Shown here in pieces: positions 40,824 to 58,455 of a stretch of 64,000 bases of DNA. Below the pieces are notes generated by a model, which saw only the letters and a program-made list of their open reading frames with translations, did not search any database and was not told where the DNA came from. Numbering within the stretch: position 1 is the first letter of the stretch; each line of letters starts with the position of its first letter. The stretch is from Halarcobacter sp. (GTDB lineage Bacteria > Campylobacterota > Campylobacteria > Campylobacterales > Arcobacteraceae). Both the position numbers and the translations under genes were made by a program. The DNA lies in assembly GCA_963676565.1 (NCBI GenBank), contig OY781089.1:480001-544000 (forward strand). Direction: 5' to 3'.

Positions 40824-43034
40824 ATGAGAATAAAAACTCTTCTACTACTTATAATACTAATAAATATATCCTTATTTGCACAATCAAATAAAAACGTACT
40901 TGTAATTAATTCTTACCATAGAGGGTTTGAATGGAGTGATAAAGTAATCAATGGAATAGAAAAAACTTTATACAATACAAAAACAAATGTAAATGTTTTA
41001 TATATGGATTCAAAAAGAATCGCATCAGAAAAATATTTCAACAAAATGAAAGAACTTTATAAATTACAATTGGGAAAAAGTAAATATAATTTAATTGTTG
41101 CTGTTGATACTTTTGCCTATGAATTTATGCTAAAAAACTACAATGAACTCTTTAAAGATGAACCCTTATACTTTGTAGGGATTGAACAATATTCCCAAAA
41201 AGATGTTGACTTCTATAACTTGACAGATAAAGTATCTGGAGTATTAGAGAAAAGAGCAATTGACGAGACTATTCAAATTATAAATAAATCAATTCCAAAA
41301 TTAAATAAACTATATATTATAAATGACAAAAGTAAAAATGGAGACCATACGGACCCATATATACGAAATGCTATAAATAATCTAAATAAAAATATTAAAA
41401 TAGAATATATTAGAAGTTCAAACCTAGATAAATTAAAGAAAAAATTCTCAAAGTATAAAAAAGATGAAGCAATATTTTTTATACGTTTTTACAATAATGA
41501 AGATGGTTCTTTAAATAAAAACAGTGAAATTGCTTCAATGATAGATTCTTGTAAAATTCCTGTTTTCTCAACTGATACATTGTTTATTGGAAAAGGTTCA
41601 GTTGGAGGGAAACTTGTAGATATTGAAAAACTAGGAGAAAATGCAGGTGTTGATATTTTAAGAATTTTGAATAATCAATTAAAACTTTCATTTATAAAAA
41701 CTAATACCTCATATGAATATATTTTTGATTACAAAAAAATTAAAGAATTTAATATAAACCTTGAAAGATTAAACTTAAAATATACACTAATAAATACCCC
41801 AATAACTTTTTTTGATAAATATAGAGAGTTTATCGATATTGTTTTTATAATCAGCCCATTTTTAGTTCTTTTAATCCTTGGATTAATTCATAACTTAAGA
41901 TTAAGAATTCAAAAATCAAAGATATCTCAACAAAGAATAGAATTAGATAAGATTTTATTAAATGCTATAGATAATCCAATCGTTTGGCAAGACAAAGATG
42001 GGAAAATTGTTGAATATAATACTAAATTTGAAGAATTTATGAAATATAAAACACCTGATAATAAAGATTTGACTTTTTGTGATTTTATGAAAAACTATAA
42101 AAACAGACCCATAATTGATTGTTTAAAAAAATTTATAAATAAATCAGAAACTGAAAATCTATTAACAATAAAAACTAATACCCAAGAGAAATTTTACATA
42201 ATAAATCAAACAAACTATACTGAAAATATTTATAATACTAGTGGTACAGTAACTGTTTTAACAGATATAACAAAAGAAAAAGAAGCTATAAAAGAGAAAT
42301 CAAAACACCAAGAGTTTATTATCCAACAAAGTAAACTTGCTGAAATAGGTGAAGTTTTTTCATCAATAGCACATCAATGGAAAGCTCCTTTAGTAGAGAT
42401 TGCAACCATTGCACAAGAGCAAGCCTATAATGAAGATAGTAATTTTGATGGAAAAAATAATATATATGTTAACGATATTATGGTGCAAGTTAAATATATG
42501 ACTGATACAATAAATGACTTCCAAAAATTTATTATGCCATCTACTAAAAAAATAGCTTTTGATGTTCATGAATCAATAAGTGAAATGTTAGAGATTATAA
42601 ATCACAATTTAAAATATAACTATATTAATGTAGATATAAATGTTCCTGAAGGAACCCATCTAACAGTATTAGGTTATAAAAATGAGTTTATGCAAACCCT
42701 TCTTAATATTGTAAATAATTCAAAAGATGCCATTATAAAACAAAAAAAGATTGGCAATATAAAAAAAGGAAAAATTACAATAAATCTAATCAATATTGAA
42801 AAATATCTACAACTTGAAATTATTGATAATGGAGGTGGTATCCCTGAAACATTTATTGAAAATATATTCAAACCATATTTCACAACAAAAGAGAAAGGGC
42901 ATGGAATTGGTTTATATATGGCAAAACTAATTATAGAAGATAAAATTGGTGGAAAAATAGAAGCACAAAATTTAAAAGATGGCGCAAAATTTACAATTAG
43001 ACTGGAGACTTACGATGAAGATATTAGTTCTTGA
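40824..43034 (+). CDS. Sensor histidine kinase with fused ABC-substrate-binding-like periplasmic domain
   Basis: INSYHRGFEWSD N-terminus, TM, PAS-like, IAHQWKAPL, DNGGG, GHGIGLY. Confidence 0.9.
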   Translation: MRIKTLLLLIILINISLFAQSNKNVLVINSYHRGFEWSDKVINGIEKTLYNTKTNVNVLYMDSKRIASEKYFNKMKELYKLQLGKSKYNLIVAVDTFAYEFMLKNYNELFKDEPLYFVGIEQYSQKDVDFYNLTDKVSGVLEKRAIDETIQIINKSIPKLNKLYIINDKSKNGDHTDPYIRNAINNLNKNIKIEYIRSSNLDKLKKKFSKYKKDEAIFFIRFYNNEDGSLNKNSEIASMIDSCKIPVFSTDTLFIGKGSVGGKLVDIEKLGENAGVDILRILNNQLKLSFIKTNTSYEYIFDYKKIKEFNINLERLNLKYTLINTPITFFDKYREFIDIVFIISPFLVLLILGLIHNLRLRIQKSKISQQRIELDKILLNAIDNPIVWQDKDGKIVEYNTKFEEFMKYKTPDNKDLTFCDFMKNYKNRPIIDCLKKFINKSETENLLTIKTNTQEKFYIINQTNYTENIYNTSGTVTVLTDITKEKEAIKEKSKHQEFIIQQSKLAEIGEVFSSIAHQWKAPLVEIATIAQEQAYNEDSNFDGKNNIYVNDIMVQVKYMTDTINDFQKFIMPSTKKIAFDVHESISEMLEIINHNLKYNYINVDINVPEGTHLTVLGYKNEFMQTLLNIVNNSKDAIIKQKKIGNIKKGKITINLINIEKYLQLEIIDNGGGIPETFIENIFKPYFTTKEKGHGIGLYMAKLIIEDKIGGKIEAQNLKDGAKFTIRLETYDEDISS

Positions 43035-43671
43035 AGATAATGAAAGATTATCAAAATTAATAAAAAATGCCCTAAACAAACATGGTTATATTGTGGATTT
43101 AGTAAGTGATGGAGAAGAAGCCTTAGACAAAATTTTAGATGGATATTCTTGTTTTGTTTTAGATATAAATGTACCATCTTTAGATGGAATTTCAGTTTTA
43201 GAATCTATTAAAATGTATCACAAAAATGTGCCTACAATTATAATTAGTTCAAACCATGACTTAGAAAAAATTCAAAAATCATATGAAACGGGATGTGATG
43301 ATTATATAAAAAAACCATTTTTTATGTATGAACTAATCCATAAAATCCAAAAATTATGTTTTAAAGAGGTTTCAAAAATAAGCCTTGGTGAAAAATTCAT
43401 ATATGATATTCCAAAAAGACTTTTAACACATGATGATAATAAAATTGAACTAGCAAGAAAAGAGATACTTCTATTGGAACTTCTAACAAAAGATATAAAT
43501 AGAGTTTTTAGTTTTGATGAGATTGAGGAATATGTTTGGGAAGGGGAGCCTTCTACAATCATGAATATTAGAGCTTTGGTTAAAAGAATAAGAAAAAAAA
43601 TACCCGAAAAAGCTATAAAGATTGTAAAAGGGATTGGATATAGCGTAAATGCAACAAAAATAGACGAATAA
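43015..43671 (+). CDS. OmpR-family response regulator
   Basis: MKILVLED, LDINVP, DDYIKKP, GIGY; start ATG 43015 behind GGAG. Confidence 0.93.
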   Translation: MKILVLEDNERLSKLIKNALNKHGYIVDLVSDGEEALDKILDGYSCFVLDINVPSLDGISVLESIKMYHKNVPTIIISSNHDLEKIQKSYETGCDDYIKKPFFMYELIHKIQKLCFKEVSKISLGEKFIYDIPKRLLTHDDNKIELARKEILLLELLTKDINRVFSFDEIEEYVWEGEPSTIMNIRALVKRIRKKIPEKAIKIVKGIGYSVNATKIDE

Positions 43672-43729
43672 AAACCACTTTTTATACTCCATAGTTTAAT
43701 ATCATTTAGAAAAATTCTAAGGTGTGTTT

Positions 43730-44647
43730 ATGGATTATCAAAAAATACTTGAAGAGATACAAGAAGAGATTCAACCTTTTATAAAAGAAGGGAAAGTTGC
43801 CGATTATATTCCTGCACTTGCAAATTCAAATATTAATGATTTTGCAATGAGTATAATTGAACTTGATGGGAAAGAATATAATGTTGGATGTACCCAAAAA
43901 CTATTTTCTATCCAAAGTATTTCTAAGGTTTTTACCTTCACTATAGCACTTAAAATTTATTGTAAAAATTTATATAAAAGAGTTGGATATGAGCCATCAG
44001 GAAACCCTTTTAATTCCTTAGTACAACTTGAATATGAAAAAGGAATCCCAAGAAACCCATTTATAAATGCAGGAGCAATAGTAACTACTGATGCCTTATA
44101 CTCAAAACATAAAAGCAATACCTTTTATACAATTCTAAATTTTATAAAAAAGCAATGTGGCTATGCCGGAGTCCAAGCAAACAATGAAATATTTGAATCA
44201 GAATTAGCCCATGGTTTTAGAAATCTATCCTTAATAAACCTAATGAAAAGTTTTGGCAATATTGAAAATAATATAGATAATGTAATTTCCACTTATTTTA
44301 GACAATGTTCAATCATGATGAACACACAACAATTAGCTAAGTCAATGCTTTTTTTAGCAAATCATGGTATTAACCCTCTAACAAAAGAGCTAGTTGTAAG
44401 TGCAGCACAAGCAAAAAGAATAAATGCCCTTATGCTTACTTGTGGACACTATGATGCCTCTGGTGATTTTGCATTTCATGTGGGACTTCCTGGGAAAAGT
44501 GGTGTTGGAGGTGGCATAGTTGCAATAGTGCCACAAAAAATGGCAATATGTGTTTACTCACCAGGTTTAAACAAAGTGGGTAATTCTTTAGTTGGAACAA
44601 AAGCTTTAGAACTTTTTACAACAAAAACAAAGTTATCTATCTTCTAA
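43730..44647 (+). CDS. glsA: Glutaminase
   Basis: GKVADYIPALA, FSIQSISK, EPSGNPFN, NPFINAGA, PGKSGVGGG. Confidence 0.96.
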   Translation: MDYQKILEEIQEEIQPFIKEGKVADYIPALANSNINDFAMSIIELDGKEYNVGCTQKLFSIQSISKVFTFTIALKIYCKNLYKRVGYEPSGNPFNSLVQLEYEKGIPRNPFINAGAIVTTDALYSKHKSNTFYTILNFIKKQCGYAGVQANNEIFESELAHGFRNLSLINLMKSFGNIENNIDNVISTYFRQCSIMMNTQQLAKSMLFLANHGINPLTKELVVSAAQAKRINALMLTCGHYDASGDFAFHVGLPGKSGVGGGIVAIVPQKMAICVYSPGLNKVGNSLVGTKALELFTTKTKLSIF

Positions 44648-44732: not shown

Positions 44733-45815
44733 TTGATAGCTATTGCTTTAAAAGCGTTAAATGCAAATAGATTAAAAACATCACTTATCTATCTTAGTAT
44801 CATTTTTTCAATTACATCAATTTTTTTAATAAGTTCTATATCTAATGGAATTATTGCTATGTACTCGAATATGCTTAAAACTGATGGGGATATCATAGTA
44901 ACCCAAGCAAAGATCTCTGATACTTTTTTCTCAAATGTTGATATTAACTTACTTGAAAAAATAAAAAAAATTGAAGGGGTGAAAGAATCATCGGCAATTA
45001 TAGTTGGTGCTTCACCCGTTGAAGATTTACCCATAGTGGCGATATACGGTGTTACAAAAAATAGATTTAAAAACTATAAACTTATTTTAAACAACTATCC
45101 AAAAGAAAATGAAGTCTTAGTAGGTAAAAGTATTTATGAACAATTAACAAATAAAAAACAAATAGAAATAGCCGATAAAACTTTTAAAATTGCAGGAGTT
45201 TTCAAAAGTGATATAGGCTTTGAAAATGGTGGTGTGGTTTTAAATATTGAAGATGCTGGAGAGATTTTCAATAAAAGTGCCTCTATTCTTATGGTAAATG
45301 CAAATATTCAATCAGATATCAACTCCATAAAATCTAAAATAAAAAAGCTAAGTTCAAAAATAGATGTAAAAACAACTGCTAATTTTGTGGACAACTATAA
45401 TCAGTTTAAAATAATTCAAACCTCATCAAATACTATTTCATTAATCGCTTTTTGTATGGGTTTACTATCAATTGTAAGTATCATGAGTATAACTGTAAAT
45501 CAAAGAAAAGATGAGTTTGGTATCAAAAGAGCCTTGGGAATACCAATAAAAAAGATTATTTTGCAAATTATGAGTGAGAGCTTTATTCTAGGTTTTTTTA
45601 GTTTCATTAGTTCGTTTTTTCTTTCTCATATCATTTTATACTTTATAAAAAATATTCAATTTTTACATGGTTATGTAAATGGTGAGATTTCATTGAACTT
45701 GGCATTTTTTATTTTTGTAACTTCTCTTTCTATGTCTATTTTAGGTTCTATTCTGCCTGCACTAAATGCAGCTAAAACAGACCCACTTATGCTAATTCAA
45801 GGAACTAGAATATGA
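44733..45815 (+). CDS. ABC transporter permease, MacB/FtsX type
   Basis: N-terminal TM, large periplasmic domain, QRKDEFGIKRALG, three C-terminal TM, PALNAAKTDP. Confidence 0.9.
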   Translation: MIAIALKALNANRLKTSLIYLSIIFSITSIFLISSISNGIIAMYSNMLKTDGDIIVTQAKISDTFFSNVDINLLEKIKKIEGVKESSAIIVGASPVEDLPIVAIYGVTKNRFKNYKLILNNYPKENEVLVGKSIYEQLTNKKQIEIADKTFKIAGVFKSDIGFENGGVVLNIEDAGEIFNKSASILMVNANIQSDINSIKSKIKKLSSKIDVKTTANFVDNYNQFKIIQTSSNTISLIAFCMGLLSIVSIMSITVNQRKDEFGIKRALGIPIKKIILQIMSESFILGFFSFISSFFLSHIILYFIKNIQFLHGYVNGEISLNLAFFIFVTSLSMSILGSILPALNAAKTDPLMLIQGTRI

Positions 45816-46435
45816 TAAAAGTAATAGATATATTTCATAAATATGAAAAAGAATTAGCACTGAAAAATATAAACTTTGAAGCAAAAAAAGGTGAGTTTGT
45901 ATCAATTGTAGGGGAAAGTGGTAGTGGTAAATCAACTCTTCTTTCAATCCTTTCAACTCTACTTACTCCAACATCAGGAGAACTATTTTTTGAAGATATA
46001 AACTATAAACAAATAAAAGATATAGACCTATTTAGACAAAAGAATATAGGTTTTATTTTTCAGTTTCATTATCTAATAAACTATTTAACAGTTAAAGAGA
46101 ATATTCAAATAGCAAATGAAAATGTAAAAGATCAAAAAATCATAGAACTATTAGACTCTTTAGATATAGCAAATTTAAAAGATAAATACCCAAATGAGAT
46201 TTCAGGTGGACAAAGGCAAAGAGCAGCTATTGCTAGAGCATTAATAAATAAACCAAAAATCATTTTTGCAGATGAACCAACAGGAAACCTTGATTCTAAA
46301 AATGCAAAAAAAGTATTTGAACTTTTTAAAAGCTTATCAAATAAAGGGACAACAATAGTTATAGCAACACACAATAAAGATCTAGCACAAATGGCAGATA
46401 AAATATATGAGGTAAAAGATGGACAAATCAAATAA
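45812..46435 (+). CDS. ABC transporter ATP-binding protein, LolD/MacB type
   Basis: GESGSGKST, GFIFQ, ISGGQRQR, ADEPTGNLD, ATHN. Confidence 0.95.
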   Translation: MIKVIDIFHKYEKELALKNINFEAKKGEFVSIVGESGSGKSTLLSILSTLLTPTSGELFFEDINYKQIKDIDLFRQKNIGFIFQFHYLINYLTVKENIQIANENVKDQKIIELLDSLDIANLKDKYPNEISGGQRQRAAIARALINKPKIIFADEPTGNLDSKNAKKVFELFKSLSNKGTTIVIATHNKDLAQMADKIYEVKDGQIK

Positions 46436-48002
46436 TTTTAGTAATTTAATTAATAGACACTTTAAAATATCCCTAGTTTTTTTGTTTTTAGGTTTAACAT
46501 TTGGAATTATATATTCAGGGAATTTATTAGGTTTTTATATTGATTCTCAAACTTTAGATCCTGCTAATATGCGCTCATTGCATATTAGTTTGATGCTTTA
46601 TGGTTTTATTCCTTTAATGTTATCTTATCTTCCTTTTTTATTGATTGATAAAGATAGAGTTAAAAGTGATGAAGGATTATTCTATCTTAATTTATATACT
46701 CTATTTTGGTATATATTTTTAATTTTTATGATTAGTTCTTTATTATTTGGTAATCTTCGAGGTTTGGCATTTTATGATTTTCCATATGAATTAAATTTTA
46801 TTTTAGCCCTTGCTGGAATATTTTACATACTCTCTTTATATAAATATATAAAAGCATATGAAGTGATTCCTTTATGGATAAAAGTTTGTTTATGGATTAC
46901 AATTATTGCACCCGTAGCTCTTTTAATTCTAATGAATCCAATTATTGGTCAAGTTGAAAGTACAATTTCTGGACCCCATGGAGATAATACTTTGGGAATG
47001 AGTTTATCCTTAATACCTATTTACTATTTGATTTTTAAACTTTTAAACGAAACAGATTTTACAGCAAAATGGAATATCTTTTGGATAATACCAACAATTT
47101 TTTATTTTGCTTCAGTTTTATATAGAAGTTTTATTGGTCACTTAACATATGAACAAGAGTGGTTTTTACAATGGCTAACTTTAATGTATATCCCCCTTCT
47201 TTACAGATGGTATAAAGATTCAAAAATTGAACTTTTTGCAAAAAAAGCATTGCTTATTTCTATATTAGCTTTTCTTTTTGTTGATATTGAAGGAAACATT
47301 TTATTTATCCCTGAACTTAGATGGATATTTCATAGAAATGATTTAATAGTTGCCCATGCCCATGTTGCAATGGGTATTGGTGTATTTTTTATGGTTATAT
47401 CAATGTTTGTTTCACAAATAAAAGAGTTAAAGAAAGCAAGCTTTTATACTATGTATTTAGTTGGATTATTAGGAATCTTTACAGTTTTAAGTATCTCAGG
47501 ATTTATTCAAGCGGGAGTTTTTAACTCTATTTTAAATGTGGATATCCAAAAACTATGGGCATTTAGAACACTATTTGGAATAATAACTTTTTTATCTGTT
47601 TTAACTTTTATAAATATTAATTTGAAAATTACAAATATTGAAAAATACAATTTAATAGGAATCTTAGCTGATGGTTTTGGAGGAATCTTTCTAATTTTAT
47701 TTGCAAGTTTTGCCTATCCCCTATTAGGTTTTAAATTTACAGGAGATTATGAATATATTGTTTTTGCCTTTGTAAGTATAACAGGAGTTATTCACTTTAT
47801 GGCTATAAAATTTAAAGAGTATGAGATGATATTAACAAAACTAACCGTTTTGATTAGAGTATTTCTAAGCTCAATATTTTTTGCACTCTTTTACAAACAT
47901 TTATTAGGTTTTGAGGCACTTATGATTTCACTATTTGATATTTCATTTGCTTCATTTTATCTTCTATTCTTCTATAAAAAGGATTTTTTATGTCAAAAAT
48001 AG
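46419..48002 (+). CDS. Divergent haem-copper oxidase subunit I-like (CcoN/NorB-like) membrane protein
   Basis: RSLH (helix II), GLAFYDFP loop, HGDNTLG (cf. CcoN YGHNAVG), FHRNDLIVAHAH (cf. SHYTDWTIGHVH); extra C-terminal TM helices. Confidence 0.7.
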   Translation: MDKSNNFSNLINRHFKISLVFLFLGLTFGIIYSGNLLGFYIDSQTLDPANMRSLHISLMLYGFIPLMLSYLPFLLIDKDRVKSDEGLFYLNLYTLFWYIFLIFMISSLLFGNLRGLAFYDFPYELNFILALAGIFYILSLYKYIKAYEVIPLWIKVCLWITIIAPVALLILMNPIIGQVESTISGPHGDNTLGMSLSLIPIYYLIFKLLNETDFTAKWNIFWIIPTIFYFASVLYRSFIGHLTYEQEWFLQWLTLMYIPLLYRWYKDSKIELFAKKALLISILAFLFVDIEGNILFIPELRWIFHRNDLIVAHAHVAMGIGVFFMVISMFVSQIKELKKASFYTMYLVGLLGIFTVLSISGFIQAGVFNSILNVDIQKLWAFRTLFGIITFLSVLTFININLKITNIEKYNLIGILADGFGGIFLILFASFAYPLLGFKFTGDYEYIVFAFVSITGVIHFMAIKFKEYEMILTKLTVLIRVFLSSIFFALFYKHLLGFEALMISLFDISFASFYLLFFYKKDFLCQK

Positions 48003-48964
48003 CACTTGTATTTTTTATAGGTTTTGAACTATGTTATTATCTACTTATTGCTCAAACAGGTATTATTGAATACTTTAATTCAAATATCTTCTTAATTGCT
48101 CCACTTCCAGTAGGAGGAGTTATTGGCTCTTATTTAAGTTATAAAATCTCTGCCAAAAGTGAAACAAAAATAAAAGTATTTTTATTTATTCAGCTATTAT
48201 TGACATTTTTTTATCCAAACTTTAATTTAATAGAACTATTTATATTAGGTATTAGTGTTGGAGCATTAGCACCACTTGTAATAAATGAATTAAAAAAAGC
48301 CTCATATTTAGAAATAGGTTTAGCCCTTGCAATCTCTTATTCAGTTGGTACTTTATTGTTTAATTATGACCCAGCAAAAAGAGAATTTATTGCAATTTTA
48401 TTTACCCTTATTGTTTTTATATCATCATTTTTCCTTCCCCAAGAAAAAGAAAAAATAAATAATAGTGTAGTTTCATCATCTTTACTAATCATGATTCTGT
48501 GGATTTTTTTAGATTCTGCACTTTTTGAAACTCTTTCAAGAAATAGTGATATTTCAATTTGGAGAAATGGCTATACTTTTGAAATTGTTCTATTTCATAT
48601 CTTAGGGCTTATTAGTGCCTTTAAAATAAATCTACAAAAGTTCGAAAATGAGCTTTTTATAATTATACTATTTGCATTAAGTTACCTATTTTATTTTCTT
48701 GAAGAGAGTCTTTTATTATCAATTATTTATCCATTTGTAATCTCATATTACAATGTAACTATTTTAAAAGCTTTAAGAGAGGTTGAACTCAAAAAACTTT
48801 CTATATATATGATTTTTATTGGTTGGATAGCTTCGGGAGCGGGATTATTTACAGCTTTAGAAAATTTAACTTTATTTGTACCAACAATATTTTTAGTAGT
48901 TTTTATTCAATTCTTATACACGCAAAAAAATATTCAAACAAAGGAGAAAGAATGTATAAATTAG
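47990..48964 (+). CDS. Polytopic membrane protein (possibly MFS-like)
   Basis: About 10-12 short hydrophobic segments; FLDSALFETLSR, ISYYNV; overlaps both neighbours. Confidence 0.7.
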   Translation: MSKIALVFFIGFELCYYLLIAQTGIIEYFNSNIFLIAPLPVGGVIGSYLSYKISAKSETKIKVFLFIQLLLTFFYPNFNLIELFILGISVGALAPLVINELKKASYLEIGLALAISYSVGTLLFNYDPAKREFIAILFTLIVFISSFFLPQEKEKINNSVVSSSLLIMILWIFLDSALFETLSRNSDISIWRNGYTFEIVLFHILGLISAFKINLQKFENELFIIILFALSYLFYFLEESLLLSIIYPFVISYYNVTILKALREVELKKLSIYMIFIGWIASGAGLFTALENLTLFVPTIFLVVFIQFLYTQKNIQTKEKECIN

Positions 48965-49476
48965 TATTAATTTTATTTGTAAGTTTATTAGCAAATGCAA
49001 ATGAACTTTATTTAAAAGATGGTCAAATTAATGCCCATACAGAAGTTTTTGGAGATAGTACCATTGATCCCCAAACAAAAAAAATTGATCTAAGATTATC
49101 AAAAGATAAAGATATTGAATCAATAAAAGGTGTTTTTGAAATTGAGGCTTTATCACTTATTAGTGATAATGAAGATAGAGACAAACATATGTATGAAGTA
49201 TTAAATGCTAAGTTATCACCAAAAATCTCTTTTGATATCACTTCGATTAATAAAAAAGAAGAGCTTTATCAGATAAAAGGGCTTTTAAAAATGAATAATA
49301 TAAATAAAGAGATAAACTCTTTTGCACATATTACTCAAAATAATAAGGATATATCTATTAATGGTGACTTTTTTATTAATTTAACTGACTTCGGCCTTGA
49401 ACCTCCAACAATGTTTTTTTTAACAGTAAGAGATCAAATTGATATTAAATATAGTTTTAATTTAAAGGAAAAATAG
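48952..49476 (+). CDS. YceI-family periplasmic lipid/polyisoprenoid-binding protein
   Basis: Signal peptide from ATG 48952 (AAGGAG SD); SDNEDRDKHM, GLLKMNNINKEI, LTDFGLEPP. Confidence 0.88.
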   Translation: MYKLVLILFVSLLANANELYLKDGQINAHTEVFGDSTIDPQTKKIDLRLSKDKDIESIKGVFEIEALSLISDNEDRDKHMYEVLNAKLSPKISFDITSINKKEELYQIKGLLKMNNINKEINSFAHITQNNKDISINGDFFINLTDFGLEPPTMFFLTVRDQIDIKYSFNLKEK

Positions 49477-49929
49477 ATGAAAAGAATACTTTTAAGTCTT
49501 TTAGTAATGGGTTTATCGCTTTTTGCATCAGAGTTTAAGATAGGAGATAAAATAGGAACTTTTTCTATTTTAAATCAACACGATAAAAAAGTAACTATAG
49601 ATGATTCAATAGAAAAAATTATTGTATCTTTTGAAAAAGATACAGGGGCAAATATTAATGAGTATCTTTCAAAAAAAAATCCACTTTTTTTAAAAAATAA
49701 CAAAGCAGTATTTATAGCAAATATCTCTGGTATGCCATCAATTATTACAAAACTTTTTGCCTTACCTAAAATGCGTAAATATGATCATGAGATTTTACTT
49801 ATTTATGATGAAGATGACAAAAGATTTATATCTAAAGAGGAAAAATCTACTTTGTATACTTTAAAAGATGGAGTTATAAAATCTATAGACTTTATCACAA
49901 AAGATGATTTAGACAATATTTTTAAATGA
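49477..49929 (+). CDS. Exported redoxin/thioredoxin-fold-like protein with no cysteines
   Basis: Signal peptide; IGDKIGTFSILNQHD resembles an AhpC/TSA start; ANISGMPSIITKLFALPKMR. Confidence 0.6.
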   Translation: MKRILLSLLVMGLSLFASEFKIGDKIGTFSILNQHDKKVTIDDSIEKIIVSFEKDTGANINEYLSKKNPLFLKNNKAVFIANISGMPSIITKLFALPKMRKYDHEILLIYDEDDKRFISKEEKSTLYTLKDGVIKSIDFITKDDLDNIFK

Positions 49930-50660
49930 AAATCAAAGAAATAAATCATGTAGATATTAAAACTATTCATAAAAGCATGGATGGTTTTACTATTTTGCAA
50001 ATATCAGACCTACATATAAATAAAAAAACCACTAAAGCACAAATAAAAAACTTAGTGGAAACTTGCAATAATTTAGATTATAATATTTTAGTAATAACTG
50101 GAGATATCATCGATTGCAAAGTAAAATTTATAAAAGAAAAATTATCTATTTTGAACTTTCTAAAGGGGAAAACTTACTTTATTAGTGGAAATCATGATTT
50201 AGTTTATGGACTAAAAGATTTAATTAAACAACTTCAGAACATAACTTTTTTAGATAATAGCTATGAAAAAATTGTATATAAAGATGAAACTATCTTACTT
50301 GCAGGTATTAGTGATAGATTCTCTAAATTTTTCAAACATAAAAGAGAAGAAAAAAACCTTTTAAAGGTTTTAGAGAGAAACAAAAAAAAGATTTTGCTTG
50401 CCCATCAACCAAAAGACTATAAACTTGCGCTAAAATCAAATTGTGATTTATTTTTATGTGGTCATACCCATGGTGGTCAAATCTGGCCTTTCCATTATTT
50501 TGTAAGAATTTTTCAACCATTTTTAAATGGTTTACACTATATAAAAAACTGTCCAATTTATGTAAATAAAGGAATCGGAACATGGGGTATAGATTATAGA
50601 TATAAAGCACATAGTGAGATTGCATTATTAAGGTTTACAAGTGAAAATACTTATAATTGA
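49926..50660 (+). CDS. Soluble calcineurin-like metallophosphoesterase
   Basis: SDLH, TGDIID, GNHD, LLAHQP, CGHTHGGQ; no TM or signal. Confidence 0.9.
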   Translation: MKIKEINHVDIKTIHKSMDGFTILQISDLHINKKTTKAQIKNLVETCNNLDYNILVITGDIIDCKVKFIKEKLSILNFLKGKTYFISGNHDLVYGLKDLIKQLQNITFLDNSYEKIVYKDETILLAGISDRFSKFFKHKREEKNLLKVLERNKKKILLAHQPKDYKLALKSNCDLFLCGHTHGGQIWPFHYFVRIFQPFLNGLHYIKNCPIYVNKGIGTWGIDYRYKAHSEIALLRFTSENTYN

Positions 50661-51312
50661 AGATGATGAAAAAATAGTAAACTTTCTAAAAAAAGGTTTA
50701 CAAGAAGAATCATATAGTGTTGATTATTCATTAAATGGTGATGAAGGTATTTACTTAGCAAGTGTTAATACCTATGATTTAATTTTACTTGATATTATGA
50801 TTCCTGTTAAAGATGGAATTGAAGTTTGTAAAACCCTAAGAGAAGAGAAAATCAATACTCCAATCATCATGTTAACAGCAAAAGATAGTATTGAAGATAA
50901 AATAAAGGGCTTAGATATTGGAGCAAACGATTACATTTCAAAACCTTTTTCCTTTAGTGAATTACTGGCAAGAATTCGAGTTCAATTAAGGAATAAAGAT
51001 AATCTAGTTTCAACCACACTTCAAATTGCTGATTTAAAATTAGACTTATTAAAAAAAACAGTAACTAGAAAAGAAGATACCATTATCCTTACAGCAAAAG
51101 AGTTTTCATTATTAGAGTTTTTAATAAGAAACCAAAATAAAGTTTTATCTGAAACAGTAATTAGTGAATCTTTAAGTAATTTAGATGATGATAATCTAAG
51201 CAATATTATAAATGTTTATATTTACAGACTTAGAAATAAAATAGACAAACCATATGAGAAAAAACTTATAAAAACAGTTAGAGGAATGGGATTTAAGATA
51301 AGTGATGAATAA
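50641..51312 (+). CDS. OmpR-family response regulator (CusR/CopR-like)
   Basis: GTG start; ILIIEDD, LDIMIP, LTAKD, KPFSFSELLAR, TVRGMG. Confidence 0.93.
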   Translation: MKILIIEDDEKIVNFLKKGLQEESYSVDYSLNGDEGIYLASVNTYDLILLDIMIPVKDGIEVCKTLREEKINTPIIMLTAKDSIEDKIKGLDIGANDYISKPFSFSELLARIRVQLRNKDNLVSTTLQIADLKLDLLKKTVTRKEDTIILTAKEFSLLEFLIRNQNKVLSETVISESLSNLDDDNLSNIINVYIYRLRNKIDKPYEKKLIKTVRGMGFKISDE

Positions 51313-52686: not shown

Positions 52687-54264
52687 ATGCACATTAAAAA
52701 TAAAGTAAAGTATAGTTTTTTATTAATCACAATCCTTATATTAATGATATTTATAGCAAATAGTGTAATTTTATATCAAATAAATGAAAATGAAGAATCT
52801 AAAAAGAATATCACAAAACTAATCTTATTACAAGAAAATATGACCTCATTGACAAAAGATATTATAATATCTCAAAATGAGGATAGATTAAAACAAATAG
52901 AAACAAGATTTACTAATTATGAAAAAGAGTTTGAAACCTTACATTATCTGCTAATCAATGATACACAAAAAGATTTTATTGATTATGTTTTAAAAGATAT
53001 GCATCAAGAAAAAAGTGTTCTTAATCAGTTAAATATTTTAGCAACAAATGAAAAACAAATTGAAACATCCTTTGAAACTCTATTTGAATTACAAAGAGAA
53101 AAAATAAAATTAAATGATGAGTTTATAGAAGCATACCCTTTAGAAAATCGTTTACGAAATAACCTTGAAGAGTTTATATTAGAGAAAAAAGATTTTAATC
53201 TACTTAAAAACTTTTCAGATGTTAAGTATTATAGTAAAGAAGTGCTTTTTCAAAAAAAATCTATGCAATATCTAAATAAATGGCTTGATAAAGTAAATGC
53301 TTTAAGTGTTTTTTTGAAAAACAAAGATTTAGAATCTTACAAAACAGTAATAAAACAATTAGGTGAAAATGCTATTAATTCTAAAAAATTACAAATAAAA
53401 CAACAATCAGTTCAAGATACAATATATAACTCATTAAAACAAAACAAAAATATAAATGAAAAAATTCAAAATGATATAGACCTTTTATCAAAAGAATTTC
53501 TAACAACCATTAGGTCATTTATAACTATGATTTTATTTTTTACCTTAGCTTTTATAATCTATTTATCTATCAAAGTTAATAAAAATGTAGCATTAACAGT
53601 TGATGAGATTGAAGAAAAAGTACAAAATGGATTAAAAAAAATAAAAAAACTTAACCATGAAATAGAAGATACACAAAAAGAAGTAATTTTCACAATGGGT
53701 GCCATAGGTGAAAGCAGATCAAAGGAAACAGGGAATCATGTTAAAAGAGTTGCTGAATACTCAAAGCTTTTTGCCTTATATTATGGATTAGATGAGAAAG
53801 AAGCTGAGATGTTAAAGATGGCTAGTCCAATGCATGATATAGGAAAAGTTGCCATTCCAGATGCCATTTTAAATAAGCCTGGAAGATTTGATGATAATGA
53901 GAGAGAAATTATGAACACCCATGCACAACTAGGTTATGAGATGTTAAAACATTCAAAAAGACCTCTTCTAAAAATGGCTGCAACAATTTCAAAAGAGCAC
54001 CATGAAAAATGGGATGGTTCAGGTTATCCAAAAGGTTTAAAAGAAGAAGAGATAAATATTTATGGACGAATAACTGCCATTGCAGACGTCTTTGATGCAT
54101 TAGGTAGTGATAGATGCTATAAAAAAGCTTGGGATGATGAAAGAATTTTTAAACTATTTAAAGAGGAAAAAGGTAAACATTTTGACCCAAAACTTGTGGA
54201 TATTTTCTTTAAAAATTTAGATGAATTTTTAGCAATAAGGGAAAAATTTAAAGACACTATTTAA
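52687..54264 (+). CDS. Membrane-anchored HD-GYP phosphodiesterase
   Basis: Two TM helices, ETGNHVKRV, MHDIGK, HHEKWDGSGYP, ADVFDAL. Confidence 0.93.
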   Translation: MHIKNKVKYSFLLITILILMIFIANSVILYQINENEESKKNITKLILLQENMTSLTKDIIISQNEDRLKQIETRFTNYEKEFETLHYLLINDTQKDFIDYVLKDMHQEKSVLNQLNILATNEKQIETSFETLFELQREKIKLNDEFIEAYPLENRLRNNLEEFILEKKDFNLLKNFSDVKYYSKEVLFQKKSMQYLNKWLDKVNALSVFLKNKDLESYKTVIKQLGENAINSKKLQIKQQSVQDTIYNSLKQNKNINEKIQNDIDLLSKEFLTTIRSFITMILFFTLAFIIYLSIKVNKNVALTVDEIEEKVQNGLKKIKKLNHEIEDTQKEVIFTMGAIGESRSKETGNHVKRVAEYSKLFALYYGLDEKEAEMLKMASPMHDIGKVAIPDAILNKPGRFDDNEREIMNTHAQLGYEMLKHSKRPLLKMAATISKEHHEKWDGSGYPKGLKEEEINIYGRITAIADVFDALGSDRCYKKAWDDERIFKLFKEEKGKHFDPKLVDIFFKNLDEFLAIREKFKDTI

Positions 54265-55369: not shown

Positions 55370-55771
55370 ATGAAATATTTATTTTTAGGATTATTTGTAA
55401 TAAGTTTTGCAAATGCTAGTGTAGTTGATGACTATTTAAATAGTTTAAAAAAAGAGGTTCAAAGTCAAAACCCAACTTTTAAAGGTTTTGATTATAAAAG
55501 GGGTGAAGAGATTTTCACATCTAAACATATTGGTAAAAAAGGTAAAGAGATATCTTGCGTATCATGTCACACTGCAAATCTAAACCAAACAGGGGAAAAC
55601 TTTTTTACAGGAAAAGAGATAAAACCCCTATCACCAAAAGCAAATCCAAAAAGATTTACAAAAGTTAAAACAATTGAAAAATGGTTAAGAAGAAACTTCA
55701 ATGATGTTTATAAAAGAGAAGGTACAGCCCAAGAAAAAGGTGATGTAATAACTTACATCATAAATAAATAA
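55370..55771 (+). CDS. SHP-like (DUF1924) monohaem cytochrome c
   Basis: Signal peptide, CVSCH, KPLSPKANPKRF, KWLRRNFNDV, EKGD. Confidence 0.88.
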   Translation: MKYLFLGLFVISFANASVVDDYLNSLKKEVQSQNPTFKGFDYKRGEEIFTSKHIGKKGKEISCVSCHTANLNQTGENFFTGKEIKPLSPKANPKRFTKVKTIEKWLRRNFNDVYKREGTAQEKGDVITYIINK

Positions 55772-55780
55772 GGAGACAAC

Positions 55781-56272
55781 ATGAGATATTTACTAATACT
55801 AACAATAGGATTTGCATCACTTATGGCAAATGAGATGAATACAAAAGAAACTCTTTTTAAAAATGAGTGTTCATCATGTCATATGGCATATCAAGCACAA
55901 TTTCTACCAAAAAGATCGTGGATAAAAATGATGGATAATCTATCTGAGCATTTTGACACTGATGCTTCACTAGACAAAGAAGATACGCAGATGATAAAAG
56001 AGTATTTAGTTAATAATTCAAGTGATTCAACTAAAAGATTATATGGCGAGATTGCAGAATTTGCACAATCAATTCCAAAATCAAAAACTCTTTTAGCAAT
56101 CACTGAAATTCCAAAATTTAAAAGAGAACACAGAGAAGTTCCAAAAAGATTTATAAATCAAAAAGAGGTGAAAAGTTTAAGTAATTGTATTGCTTGTCAC
56201 ACAGATGCAAAAAAAGGTTGGTATGATGAAGATAATATTAATATACCAAACTATGGAAGATGGGACGATTAA
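55781..56272 (+). CDS. Dihaem cytochrome c (DHC)
   Basis: ECSSCHMAY..FLPKRSW, HFDTDASL, CIACH. Confidence 0.92.
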   Translation: MRYLLILTIGFASLMANEMNTKETLFKNECSSCHMAYQAQFLPKRSWIKMMDNLSEHFDTDASLDKEDTQMIKEYLVNNSSDSTKRLYGEIAEFAQSIPKSKTLLAITEIPKFKREHREVPKRFINQKEVKSLSNCIACHTDAKKGWYDEDNINIPNYGRWDD

Positions 56273-56289
56273 TTAAAAAGGATAATATA

Positions 56290-57406
56290 ATGCAAAAATC
56301 ATATATCTGGAGTTTACCAACAAGAGTTTTTCACGCTTTATTTGCTGTATTTATTTTGTTGGCTTTTTTAACTGATGATGATAATTTATTACAATATCAT
56401 GCAATAATCGGTTACTCTATTTTTATTTTGCTTTTATTTAGAATAGGATGGGGATTATTTGGTCCTAAACACTCAAGGTTTAAAGACTTTCCACTTAGTA
56501 TAAAAAAAGCAAAAGAGTTTTTAGGTGAAATGTTAACAGATAAATCTAAATATGTAGGGCATAATCCAATGGCTTCATTTGTAATGATTGCTATTTTAAC
56601 AACAGTTTTTTTAACTATTGTTACTGGTGTTTTAGCCTTTGGTATCCAAGAAGGTCGTGGAATAGCTTCAGGATTGAACAGCTCATTTTTTAAAGAGATG
56701 GAACTATTTGAAGAGATTCATGAATTTTTTACAGGTGTTTTAATAGCTTTAGTTGTAGCTCACTTAGGTGGTGTTTTAGTGGACAAAGTTTTACATGGGA
56801 AAAATAAAACTTTGAACTCAATTGCAAATGGTTATAAAATGACTGATGAAAAAGAGGATATCACTGTAAATTTTTATCAAAAAACATTTGCATTTATTAT
56901 GGCTATTTTATTTATAGGATTTTTACTATTTAATTTAACAAGTCCTAAAAACGTATTAACTGCCTCAGTTTTTGAACCAATTGATTACAAAAAAGAGAAC
57001 TCTTTGTTTGTATCTGAGTGTGCATCGTGTCACACTCTGTATCCCTCCCAATCTTTTACCTAAAAAATCTTGGGTGACATTAATGGGTGATTTAGAAAAC
57101 CATTTTGGAGATGATGCTTCTTTAGATGAAGAGGATACAAAAATCATATTGGATTTTCTAGTAAAAAATAGTGCAGAAAACTCAACTATGCAAGGAAGTT
57201 TAAACTTTTTGAATTCAATTGAAGATAAAGATATAATAGCCATGTCACAAACACAGTTTTGGAAAAAAACCCATGAAGATATTCCAAAAGAGTTGTTTAA
57301 TCATAAAGATATAAAAAGCAAAGCTAATTGTAAAGCTTGTCATACGGATATTGAGAAAGGATTAATAGAAAATGAAAATATTAAAGATATTTCTAGTTTT
57401 AATTAG
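56290..57406 (+). pseudogene. Cytochrome b-DHC fusion split by a one-base insertion at about 57043-57045
   Basis: WSLPTRVFH, GHNP, EEIHE, AHLGGV cytochrome b; ECASCHTLY then frame switch to PPNLLPKKSW..HFGDDASL..CKACH; removing one C from tatCCCtccc gives about 371 aa. Confidence 0.85.
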
Positions 57407-57797
57407 TCTATTTGTATTTTTAAATGCAGATGATGATTATAAGGATTTTGAAGAATACAAACATAAATATTATAAAAATCAAAAATACAATCTATATAAA
57501 AATTTTGAATTTTTAAATTTAGACTCCCAACAATATACTCTTATGAAAGATATTTTAATCAATTACAAAAAAGAGTATAAACAACTTCAAAAATATAAAC
57601 ACGATATAAAAGAAAAGATTGAAGATTTAGTAAAAGAGGATAGTTTTGACAAGAAAGAATTTATTGCTTTGTTAAAAGATTTAAAGTATAAACATCTTGA
57701 AATTGAAGCATATAAAATAGAAAGAATTCATAATATTTTAAATAAAAAACAAAGAAAAAAACTAGCCCATTATGTTGAGGAGTGGGAACTTGACTAA
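57372..57797 (+). CDS. Spy/CpxP-like periplasmic protein
   Basis: Signal peptide; LNLDSQQ and ILNKKQRKKL resemble the paired LTxxQ motifs. Confidence 0.65.
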   Translation: MKILKIFLVLISLFVFLNADDDYKDFEEYKHKYYKNQKYNLYKNFEFLNLDSQQYTLMKDILINYKKEYKQLQKYKHDIKEKIEDLVKEDSFDKKEFIALLKDLKYKHLEIEAYKIERIHNILNKKQRKKLAHYVEEWELD

Positions 57798-58455
57798 TAA
57801 TATATTATTAATTGAAGATGATACTGCTATGAATGAACTCATAGTTGATTACCTAAAAGATTTTGATTTAAATTGTACTGCATTTGTAAATCCTATTAAT
57901 GCCTTAGAAGAGTTAAAAAAAAACAGCAATTATGATATTGTAGTATTAGATTTAATGCTTCCTAATTTAAATGGATTTGATGTATTTAGAAAAATCAAAT
58001 CCATTGTTGATGTACCAATTATAATATCTTCTGCTAGAGGTGATATTGGTAACAAAATCCATGGATATGAACTAGGAGCTGATGATTTTTTAGCTAAACC
58101 TTATGAGCCAAGAGAACTTGTTTTAAGAATCAACTATATACTAAAAAAATCAACTCAAGAGACTTTTACAATTGGTGACTTTGAGATAAATACAAAAGAA
58201 AGAGAAGTTTTAGTAGATAATTATCCAATCGATTTTACTAAAGTTGAGTTTGAAATTTTTATGTTTTTAGTTAATAACTCAAATAGAATAGCATCAAGGG
58301 AAGATATAATAGAAAACACCTCTTTAGAATCTAATACAAAAAATAGAACTGTTGATATGCATATTTCAAACATAAGATATAAAATAGGTGATGATTCAAA
58401 GGAACCAAAATATATTAAGTCAGTTTGGGGTGTTGGGTATAAATTAATCTCTTAG
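57790..58455 (+). CDS. OmpR-family response regulator
   Basis: ILLIEDD, LDLMLP, SARGD, KPYEPREL, SVWGVGY; probable TTG start 57790. Confidence 0.93.
   Translation: MTNNILLIEDDTAMNELIVDYLKDFDLNCTAFVNPINALEELKKNSNYDIVVLDLMLPNLNGFDVFRKIKSIVDVPIIISSARGDIGNKIHGYELGADDFLAKPYEPRELVLRINYILKKSTQETFTIGDFEINTKEREVLVDNYPIDFTKVEFEIFMFLVNNSNRIASREDIIENTSLESNTKNRTVDMHISNIRYKIGDDSKEPKYIKSVWGVGYKLIS

Follow-up and report, generated by a model that had tools for sequence, protein, structure and literature searches.

The haem-copper oxidases (HCO) form a superfamily whose signature is taken to be six active-site His residues. In the portions of Murali et al. (2024; PMC11214002) available to us, to which our use of that census is limited throughout, twelve or more HCO families are listed, and gNOR, in which one active-site His is changed to Asp, is called the first family to replace an active-site His. 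This gNOR is related to the B family and has a subunit II of cupredoxin fold, and the examples given under 'N2O red' are Flavobacteriia. A second precedent comes from Burkholderia, for which Naguib et al. (2022; PMC9113575) report, again in the part of the text available to us, that BcnA, a lipocalin of the YceI family, and LcoA, the dihaem cytochrome b561 encoded next to it, guard the cell envelope from lipid peroxidation. In their proposal, a quinone held by the lipocalin is reduced again by the cytochrome, with redox quenching of lipid-derived radicals. Here we describe a gene of Halarcobacter sp. that can be set beside both systems. It lies in a stretch of 64,000 nucleotides (NCBI GenBank assembly GCA_963676565.1, contig OY781089.1, positions 480,001 to 544,000 of the forward strand), which as a whole is called the window below, and a model that saw only the sequence had described its product as a CcoN/NorB-like protein that keeps the haem ligands and appears to lack the histidines of the CuB/FeB site (the original prediction).

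The family of this HCO-like protein belongs to the HCO superfamily as a variant whose second-metal site has been replaced and whose genomic partners are without precedent. On its predicted structure, the protein is a divergent member of the superfamily that stands nearest to the branch of cbb3 CcoN and cNOR NorB, and we are highly confident that it is an HCO-fold protein without the canonical second-metal site. It probably binds two haems. As to its function, we tentatively prefer, by analogy, a CuB-less two-haem oxidoreductase that would serve an envelope stress or lipid/quinone module and would not be a respiratory reductase of O2 or nitric oxide (NO).

Fold and haem ligands of the HCO-like protein

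The AF2 model of the protein (pLDDT 75.5, pTM 0.72) has the 12-transmembrane-helix fold of COX1, and the top 50 Foldseek matches to it were all HCO subunit I, which confirms on the model the fold named in the original prediction. The VIA structural matches cover model residues 1-402, and their Z scores to HCO ranged from 25.1 to 17.3. The highest were to NorB of P. aeruginosa (3o0r_B; Z 25.1, 367 residues aligned, root mean square deviation 4.3) and the Roseobacter NO reductase (NOR; 4xyd_A; Z 25.0), followed by cbb3 CcoN chains (Z 24.8-23.6), qNOR (Z about 20) and the A-type oxidases (Z about 18-19). The cNOR NorB structures (PDB 3o0r, 4xyd) are the best match and have the same haem-ligand pattern. 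The likeness to cbb3 CcoN (PDB 3mk7, 9g6b, 8smr) consists of the 12-helix fold, the RxxH of helix II, the H-x-x-D-x4-H-x-H of helix X, the acidic loop between helices III and IV and the Tyr of helix VII.

The link in sequence is weak. A hidden Markov model search against COX1 (PF00115) gave a match with an E value of 4.3e-4, but this match was restricted to residues 201-387 and scored 19.7 bits, below the gathering cut-off of 34.8. COX1 was the sole Pfam match of the protein, with none to b561 (PF01292), and a precomputed PF00115 match is present in many of its relatives. No match was obtained in the NCBIfam scan of the protein, and the family and CcoN could not be linked by HMMER. When the family profile was run against 1.84 billion representatives, 68 proteins were found at E <= 0.001, all of them members of the family itself or fragments of members, and no canonical HCO appeared at that threshold. 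An hhalign comparison of the family alignment (80 sequences) with 30 Campylobacterota CcoN sequences aligned family residues 9-398 with CcoN 12-464, and the alignment to NorB had an E value of 3.5e-4 over helices IX-XII.

All conservation counts given here were taken from these 80 sequences, which span 45-92% identity; the nearest database protein is a hypothetical protein of Arcobacter arenosus with 92% identity, and the relatives are named 'hypothetical', 'cbb3-type cytochrome c oxidase subunit I' or 'heme-copper oxidase family protein'. The motifs quoted in the original prediction are all found in the translation (RSLH at 52-55, GLAFYDFP at 115-122, HGDNTLG at 187-193 and HRNDLIVAHAH at 305-315). 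The reference motifs with which they had been compared are sound, because the true CcoN and NorB of the same genome carry them: the CcoN (L081, 1462..2931, followed by ccoO) has RPLH, WWYGHNAV, GGHH and HFTDWIPGHVH, and the NorB (L082, adjoining norC) has VVHLWVEG, GHHY and AHGH.

In the hhalign alignment the anchor motifs are convincing, with RSLH set against RPLH and FHRNDLIVAHAH of the family matched one-to-one with AHFTDWIPGHVH of CcoN. The genome's own CcoN has H62 and H360 at the positions of H55 and H315, and H358 at that of H313. In CcoN/NorB, we take two of the aligned residues to ligate the low-spin haem and a third to be the proximal ligand of the high-spin haem, with others placed near the haem propionates. 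H55, H313, H315, H305, D308 and D120 each occur in all 80 sequences, and R52 is kept in 78. D120 belongs to the acidic loop, which in C-family enzymes presumably has a role in Ca2+/propionate binding. As far as the sequence can tell, the residues for holding a low-spin and a high-spin b-type haem are all retained, with the two His ligands of the low-spin haem in helices II and X and the proximal His of the high-spin haem in helix X. The claim that the ligands of a two-haem scaffold were kept is therefore upheld, at 80 of 80 for each.

This conservation bears on the idea that the protein is a haem-free relic, a structural membrane subunit that kept only the fold. The sequence is very divergent, and in one sampled relative (G004:C27:8439-9992) the HCO-like gene contains two in-frame TGA codons and may be a pseudogene or an assembly error; both observations would suit a relic. 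However, the three haem-ligand His, the H-x-x-D, R52 and D120 are present in 78-80 of the 80 sequences, and because such ligand conservation is unexpected without cofactors we regard a relic as very improbable.

The HCO structural matches stop at about residue 402, and residues 403-527 are without a counterpart in them. The extra helices, with the invariant D418, H459 and R480, form a candidate quinol site, and presumably they resemble the quinol sites of other oxidases.

The second-metal site

No other 9-mer of the family is as conserved as GPHGDNTLG (185-193), whose entropy is 0 over the 80 sequences, and H187, D189 and H459 are each found in all of them. According to the original prediction, the helix-VI His had become Asp, with a new His two residues before it. 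This held in one alignment and not in the other: a greedy sub-alignment pairs G188-D189-N190 with the G-H-N of CcoN, whereas in the default full-length hhalign run WWYGHNA of CcoN stands opposite a gap. The loss of the HH pair from helix VII was borne out under either alignment. The pair occurs in none of the 80 sequences in the region aligned to residues 210-263, and it is absent from the whole Halarcobacter protein (HH count 0, nine His in total). Depending on the alignment, the HH of CcoN is placed either at Y/H235-R/K236, without a gap, or at G240-x241, with a gap of five residues. Among the 80 sequences, position 235 is Tyr in 50 and His in 28, position 236 is Arg in 78 and Lys in two, and position 241 is Pro in 29, His in 14, Glu in 12, Asp in 11 and other residues in the rest.

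Y229 is invariant (80/80) and aligns with the helix-VII Tyr that lies six residues before the HH of CcoN. In cbb3 oxidases this Tyr is cross-linked to the CuB His of helix VI. With the His partner of Y229 putatively replaced by Asp, the Tyr-His cofactor would not be able to form as it does in cbb3. The retained Tyr hints at an origin of the family from a cbb3-like ancestor. The sole invariant His in helices VI-VII is H187, and the three CuB/FeB ligands, one His in helix VI and two adjacent ones in helix VII, were not found. As the original prediction had supposed, there is no canonical three-His centre in the sequence, since the canonical positions are taken by D189 and by G240/x241 or Y/H235-R/K236. 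In an outlying branch with 37-47% identity, D189 and R236 persist and H187 is Arg in one sequence. We conclude that the second-metal site was replaced under selection and did not simply decay, because GPHGDNTLG is the most conserved segment and D189 and R236 persist even in the outlying branch. The pocket above the high-spin haem would be lined by D189 and H187 from helix VI and by R/K236, Y/H235 and Y229 from helix VII; the position of D189, R236 and H187 relative to the haem is taken from homology because the AF2 model is least confident there.

The possibility that the protein is an ordinary subunit of a cbb3 oxidase or a NOR, with its ligand His missed by misalignment, is practically excluded, even though some databases label the relatives 'cbb3-type cytochrome c oxidase subunit I'. 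A single invariant His lies in helices VI-VII, HH is absent from all 80 sequences, no gene for CcoO, CcoP or NorC is a neighbour, true ccoNO and norCB stand elsewhere in the genome, and the family profile recovers no canonical HCO. In comparison with cbb3 CcoN, in which the CuB His are present, the family has D189 in helix VI and no HH, lacks genes for CcoO and CcoP, the cytochrome c subunits that would be expected alongside, carries four extra C-terminal helices and sits in an entirely different operon. In cNOR NorB the FeB has an additional Glu ligand. Neither the three-His and Glu site of FeB nor a NorC partner was found for the HCO-like protein and its operon. The broader statement of the original prediction, namely a two-haem scaffold whose second-metal site is missing or rebuilt and which is no normal oxidase or NOR, fits all the tests, including the haem ligands at 80/80, the lack of a three-His centre and the real ccoNO and norCB elsewhere.

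An Asp in place of an active-site His is common to gNOR, as described in the available text of PMC11214002, and to the HCO-like family. However, gNOR replaces one His, while the HCO-like family is non-His at all three canonical positions. Moreover, gNOR has a cupredoxin subunit and B-family kinship, whereas the HCO-like family has no cupredoxin neighbour and its nearest folds are those of the C family and cNOR. Identity with gNOR was rejected on the lack of HH, the lack of a cupredoxin neighbour and the C-family/cNOR folds, and because three carrier species are listed there with gNOR = 0. Identity with 'N2O red' was also rejected after comparison with the same source.

An enzyme of nitrogen oxides (a NO reductase, NO dismutase or similar) with a rebuilt site has also to be weighed; it would work with haem only or with a non-haem metal held at H187-x-D189 together with H235, H305 or H459. 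The nearest structural relatives are cNOR and cbb3, the H-x-D with a further His resembles the 2-His-1-carboxylate motif, and position 235 is His in 28 of 80 sequences. Altered-site HCO families (gNOR, NOD) are proposed to perform NO chemistry in the portion of PMC11214002 at hand. However, the operon has no NorC-like or cupredoxin partner and no nir or nos genes, the genome already has norCB, and a cation there would be at odds with the invariant Arg/Lys at 236, next to the site. Furthermore, position 235 alternates between Tyr and His, H187 is Arg in one outlying member, and in only 8 of the 80 loci is there a linked HD-GYP gene, whose likeness to the 'NosR family' is weak. We therefore consider a nitrogen-oxide enzyme unlikely. 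The HD-GYP gene itself (52687..54264, + strand) follows the operon and encodes an HD_5 protein with a long coiled-coil/transmembrane N-terminus; its match to the NCBIfam 'NosR family' c-di-GMP phosphodiesterase reaches 129.7 bits against a cut-off of 400.

The operon and its possible working

The genes around the HCO-like gene are listed in Table 1. The DNA around it is AT-rich (G+C content 0.24-0.33). Across the related loci the offsets of the neighbours are near-constant and the gene overlaps are conserved. In nearly all loci, the ABC ATPase gene begins about 604-610 nt ahead of the HCO-like gene, and here its end shares 17 nt with the start of that gene. The gene of the MFS-fold protein begins with an overlap of 13 nt, and the ATG of the YceI gene at 48952 in turn overlaps the MFS-fold gene. 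In a divergent GC-rich locus (L118), the HCO-like gene is followed by an MFS-like gene (40% identity, E 6e-75) and then by a YceI gene (80.9 bits); it is the single locus recovered from the GC-rich branch, and its contig ends on the upstream side.

Table 1. Features of the HCO-like gene and of its operon, by position in the window. Neighbour counts come from tblastn over the 80 related loci, which include many short contigs and many misses at contig ends.
Feature	Position	Strand	Description
HCO subunit-I-like protein	46419..48002	+	527 aa, polytopic membrane protein; 12-helix core (residues 1-402) and four extra C-terminal helices
RSLH (R52-H55), helix II	46572..46583	+	H55 putative axial ligand of low-spin haem; pairs with RPLH (H62) of own CcoN
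GLAFYDFP loop (G115-P122)	46761..46784	+	D120 aligns with acidic KEYAELEWP loop of CcoN
GPHGDNTLG (G185-G193), start of helix VI	46971..46997	+	D189 at copper/iron His position; H187 two residues earlier
Helix VII end (Y229-H241), expected HH site	47103..47141	+	holds Y229, S232, Y235 and R236; G240-H241 variable
HRNDLIVAHAH (H305-H315)	47331..47363	+	H313 putative proximal ligand of high-spin haem; H315 putative second ligand of low-spin haem; H305/D308 form the C-family H-x-x-D
C-terminal extension, four helices (residues 403-527)	47625..47999	+	AF2 helices 406-435, 445-464, 466-492 and 498-517; invariant D418, H459, R480 and D507
MacB/FtsX-type ABC permease with periplasmic core domain	44733..45815	+	360 aa; Pfam FtsX 60.3 bits, MacB_PCD 50.6 bits; in 70/80 loci at fixed offset
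ABC ATPase	45812..46435	+	207 aa; Pfam ABC_tran 125.8 bits; in 74/80 loci
MFS-fold membrane protein, no Pfam family	47990..48964	+	324 aa; AF2 pLDDT 91.6; Foldseek top 50 all MFS transporters; in 76/80 loci
Divergent YceI-family periplasmic lipocalin	48952..49476	+	174 aa; signal-peptide-like N-terminus; Pfam YceI 59.9 bits; in 75/80 loci
Small periplasmic protein (p150)	49477..49929	+	150 aa; no Cys, no Pfam family; in 57/80 loci
Calcineurin-like metallophosphoesterase	49926..50660	+	244 aa; Pfam Metallophos 55.8 bits; in 63/80 loci
OmpR-type response regulator	50641..51312	+	NCBIfam cztR_silR_copR 255.1 bits (cut-off 279.2), HprR 234.7 bits; in 57/80 loci
Sensor histidine kinase with periplasmic loop	51302..52675	+	NCBIfam cztS_silS_copS 227.2 bits (cut-off 292.55); in 54/80 loci

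The FtsX, MacB_PCD and ABC_tran scores are all over their cut-offs, and the upstream pair is a MacB-type transporter. Its permease resembles MacB and LolCDE in having the FtsX and MacB periplasmic core domains and in pairing with a LolD-like ATPase, whose best NCBIfam match was LolD at 201.8 bits, below the cut-off. The best solved relatives of the permease are generic MacB-type permeases, and no genes for a MacA/TolC-type adaptor or for LolA/B were seen in the operon. An identity as an HrtBA-like haem exporter was rejected, as the similarity of the permease is only of the generic MacB/LolCE kind. For the MFS-fold protein, a CcoA-like copper importer was compared by means of the CcoA motifs; the idea was dropped, not disproved, as the invariant residues include one Met (M274) and no Met-rich motif. 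The matches of p150 in the atlas (YtfJ_HI0045 at 0.90 and an AhpC-TSA-bearing cluster at 0.90) serve as leads only, and the phosphoesterase has weak similarity to YaeI and LpxG, below the cut-offs. No gene for a cytochrome c or a cupredoxin and no nir or nos gene was found among the proteins of the operon.

The predicted complex of the HCO-like protein, two haems and the MFS-fold protein had ipSAE values of 0.00 and 0.00, which speak neither for nor against binding. RNA reads at the locus in four runs numbered 0, 0, 0 and 1, too few to bear on expression. The scan for promoters and terminators gave 65 promoter-like sites compared with 76.8 expected and is uninformative in such AT-rich DNA.

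The translational coupling of the HCO-like gene to the genes of the ABC transporter and the MFS-fold protein may also be read in favour of a non-catalytic accessory that binds haem or porphyrin, a sink, sensor or hand-over station of the MacB-/MFS-type transporters, in haem/porphyrin or metal homeostasis under a metal-type two-component system. Export of protoporphyrin or haem by MacB-type pumps has been reported in other bacteria (PMC4263509 and papers on HrtBA, in the form available to us), and the two-component system is nearest to heavy-metal sensors. However, the permease is of the generic MacB type with nothing specific to HrtB, and the strict polar pocket (GPHGDNTLG, R236) with the whole two-haem geometry exceeds what a binding role needs. 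The YceI partner, moreover, points to isoprenoid or lipid ligands (PMC9113575, in the part available). We regard such an accessory as improbable.

We therefore return to an envelope redox or detoxification role, which is suggested because the YceI partner parallels LcoA/BcnA. In both systems, as far as the available text of PMC9113575 describes the Burkholderia pair, the gene of a two-haem membrane cytochrome is linked to a YceI gene, the haems of the Halarcobacter protein being putative. The two differ in that LcoA is a b561, whereas the HCO-like protein has the HCO fold and a would-be high-spin haem with a polar distal pocket, and in that the HCO-like module adds an ABC transporter, an MFS-fold protein, a phosphoesterase and its own two-component system. 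The likeness may thus be one of working and not of family membership.

It is quite possible that, in an envelope module, the HCO-like protein works with YceI as the redox component. Because there is no cytochrome c partner in the operon, electrons would be expected to come from the quinol pool. They would pass from menaquinol to the low-spin haem, possibly by way of the extra C-terminal helices (D418, H459, R480), and from there to the high-spin haem. The Asp/His/Arg pocket at the high-spin haem would then act, on the side of the periplasm or the outer leaflet, on a small oxidant or a radical, and the candidate substrates are peroxide, a lipid hydroperoxide, a peroxyl radical or a quinone carried by YceI. 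In such a module the HCO-like protein would be the part for electron transfer and catalysis, the ABC transporter and the lipocalin would move the hydrophobic partner, and the two-component system would place the module under stress control. In haem peroxidases, Asp, His and Arg are among the residue types used in peroxide cleavage. Peroxidase-like chemistry specifically is, to our judgement, doubtful. The same holds for the most far-reaching form of the proposal, which we consider unlikely as a whole: a copper-free haem enzyme that would be the first in the HCO superfamily to have a task outside respiration. On the outer side of the inner membrane, its pocket of His187, Asp189, Arg236 and Tyr229 would quench radicals or carry out peroxidase-type chemistry, and it would be linked to a MacB-type extractor, the MFS-fold partner and a YceI lipocalin, which would shuttle lipid or quinone.

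Several points weigh against our preferred reading of a two-haem oxidoreductase in an envelope module. The Pfam COX1 score stays under its gathering cut-off, no match was found among the PDB sequences with the single protein or with a 16-sequence profile, and the hhalign alignment to CcoN is weak (E 0.005, probability 7%). Because the sequence link to HCO is weak, the mapping of residues in helices VI-VII is uncertain: taken by itself, the segment of the greedy sub-alignment that places D189 on the copper His has an E value of 0.12, and the AF2 model reaches its lowest confidence at 173-189, with pLDDT < 50. H187-x-D189, with H235 in 28 of 80 sequences, could bind a non-haem metal. The two transporters of the operon fit transport or cofactor handling as well as a redox role, and the link to lipid peroxidation is by analogy, the cytochrome here not being a b561. 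Finally, the two-component system scores under the NCBIfam cut-offs, its nearest models being the heavy-metal CusRS/CopRS type and HprR.

Some other genes of the window and the genome deserve mention. The genome has four YceI paralogues (L114-L117), of which two are canonical (167 and 144 bits), one is the operon copy (60.7 bits) and the fourth scores 40.7 bits. A canonical pair of b561 and YceI was sought among them and rejected, as the two canonical YceI genes adjoin MarR/LigB/LysE genes and MbnB/TglH/ChrH-type and regulator genes, not b561. A second membrane-cytochrome module lies a few kb from the HCO-like operon, at 55370..57797 (+ strand), with DUF1924, a dihaem cytochrome c (DHC), a cytochrome b561, a second DHC and a small coiled-coil-like open reading frame (ORF), and it is followed by an OmpR-type regulator at 57772..58455. 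Its first DHC gene is intact (55781..56272). The b561-type ORF (56260..57063, +) ends in CxxCH, and the next ORF (56972..57406, +) overlaps it by 92 nt in another frame and matches the DHC family from profile position 10. The region 56260..57406 looks like a fusion of cytochrome b and DHC split by a frameshift near 57040-57050; the split may be genuine, a sequencing error or the sign of a pseudogene.

Upstream of the operon are a histidine kinase with an N-terminal periplasmic domain like an ABC substrate-binding protein (PF04392) and an overlapping response regulator (40824..43671, +), and a glutaminase gene (43724..44647) that is linked in only 11 of the 80 loci. Elsewhere in the genome (3267007..3268266; L083, 1471..2730), a polytopic membrane protein of 419 aa has a weak COX1 match (E 3.9e-4, 19.9 bits) and no Pfam family at 1e-3. 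Two ORFs precede it, for a Crp/Fnr-like regulator and a hemerythrin-like protein, both named by reading their translations.

Distribution and meaning of the family

The family is small, and its carriers are almost all non-host Campylobacterota. Relatives are encoded in 196 species overall. The 80 best loci, on which our figures for related loci are based, belong to Arcobacteraceae, Sulfurimonas, Sulfurospirillum, Sulfurovum, Sulfuricurvum and other Campylobacterales, together with two oddly labelled metagenome-assembled genomes (MAGs). A small GC-rich branch stands outside the main group, and one of its members is labelled as a Deltaproteobacteria MAG. In an even sample of the phylum, the family was present in 19 of 301 genomes; by taxonomic family, the positive genomes were 6/15, 6/11, 4/23, 1/12 and 1/4, and the two families with the most genomes in the sample had no positive one (0/90 and 0/124). 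True CcoN was found in 115 of 121 sampled genomes. The restriction to free-living Campylobacterota of redox interfaces fits the proposed envelope redox role, without being a proof of it.

We found no paper in our literature searches on the HCO-like family, nor one on an HCO-like protein paired with a MacB-type transporter. Aliarcobacter ellisii, Halarcobacter ebronensis and Malaciobacter halophilus carry the family, and the table of PMC11214002, in the part available, gives them C = 1 and 0 for the other HCO families. The 2024 census thus does not count the family in these three carrier species, and an exclusion that its authors did not report is possible.

In about 200 species, the family is under clear selection with the haem half kept and none of the three copper/iron His. 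Because of this combination, it represents a natural experiment on the HCO scaffold without CuB. The question of its function is directly testable because members occur in Arcobacteraceae and in Sulfurospirillum/Sulfurimonas that are culturable and non-pathogenic. The family may reveal a new envelope system that joins a haem protein with two transporters and a lipocalin. If the proposal is true, this would be a machine for envelope redox repair in bacteria that live at oxic-sulfidic interfaces.

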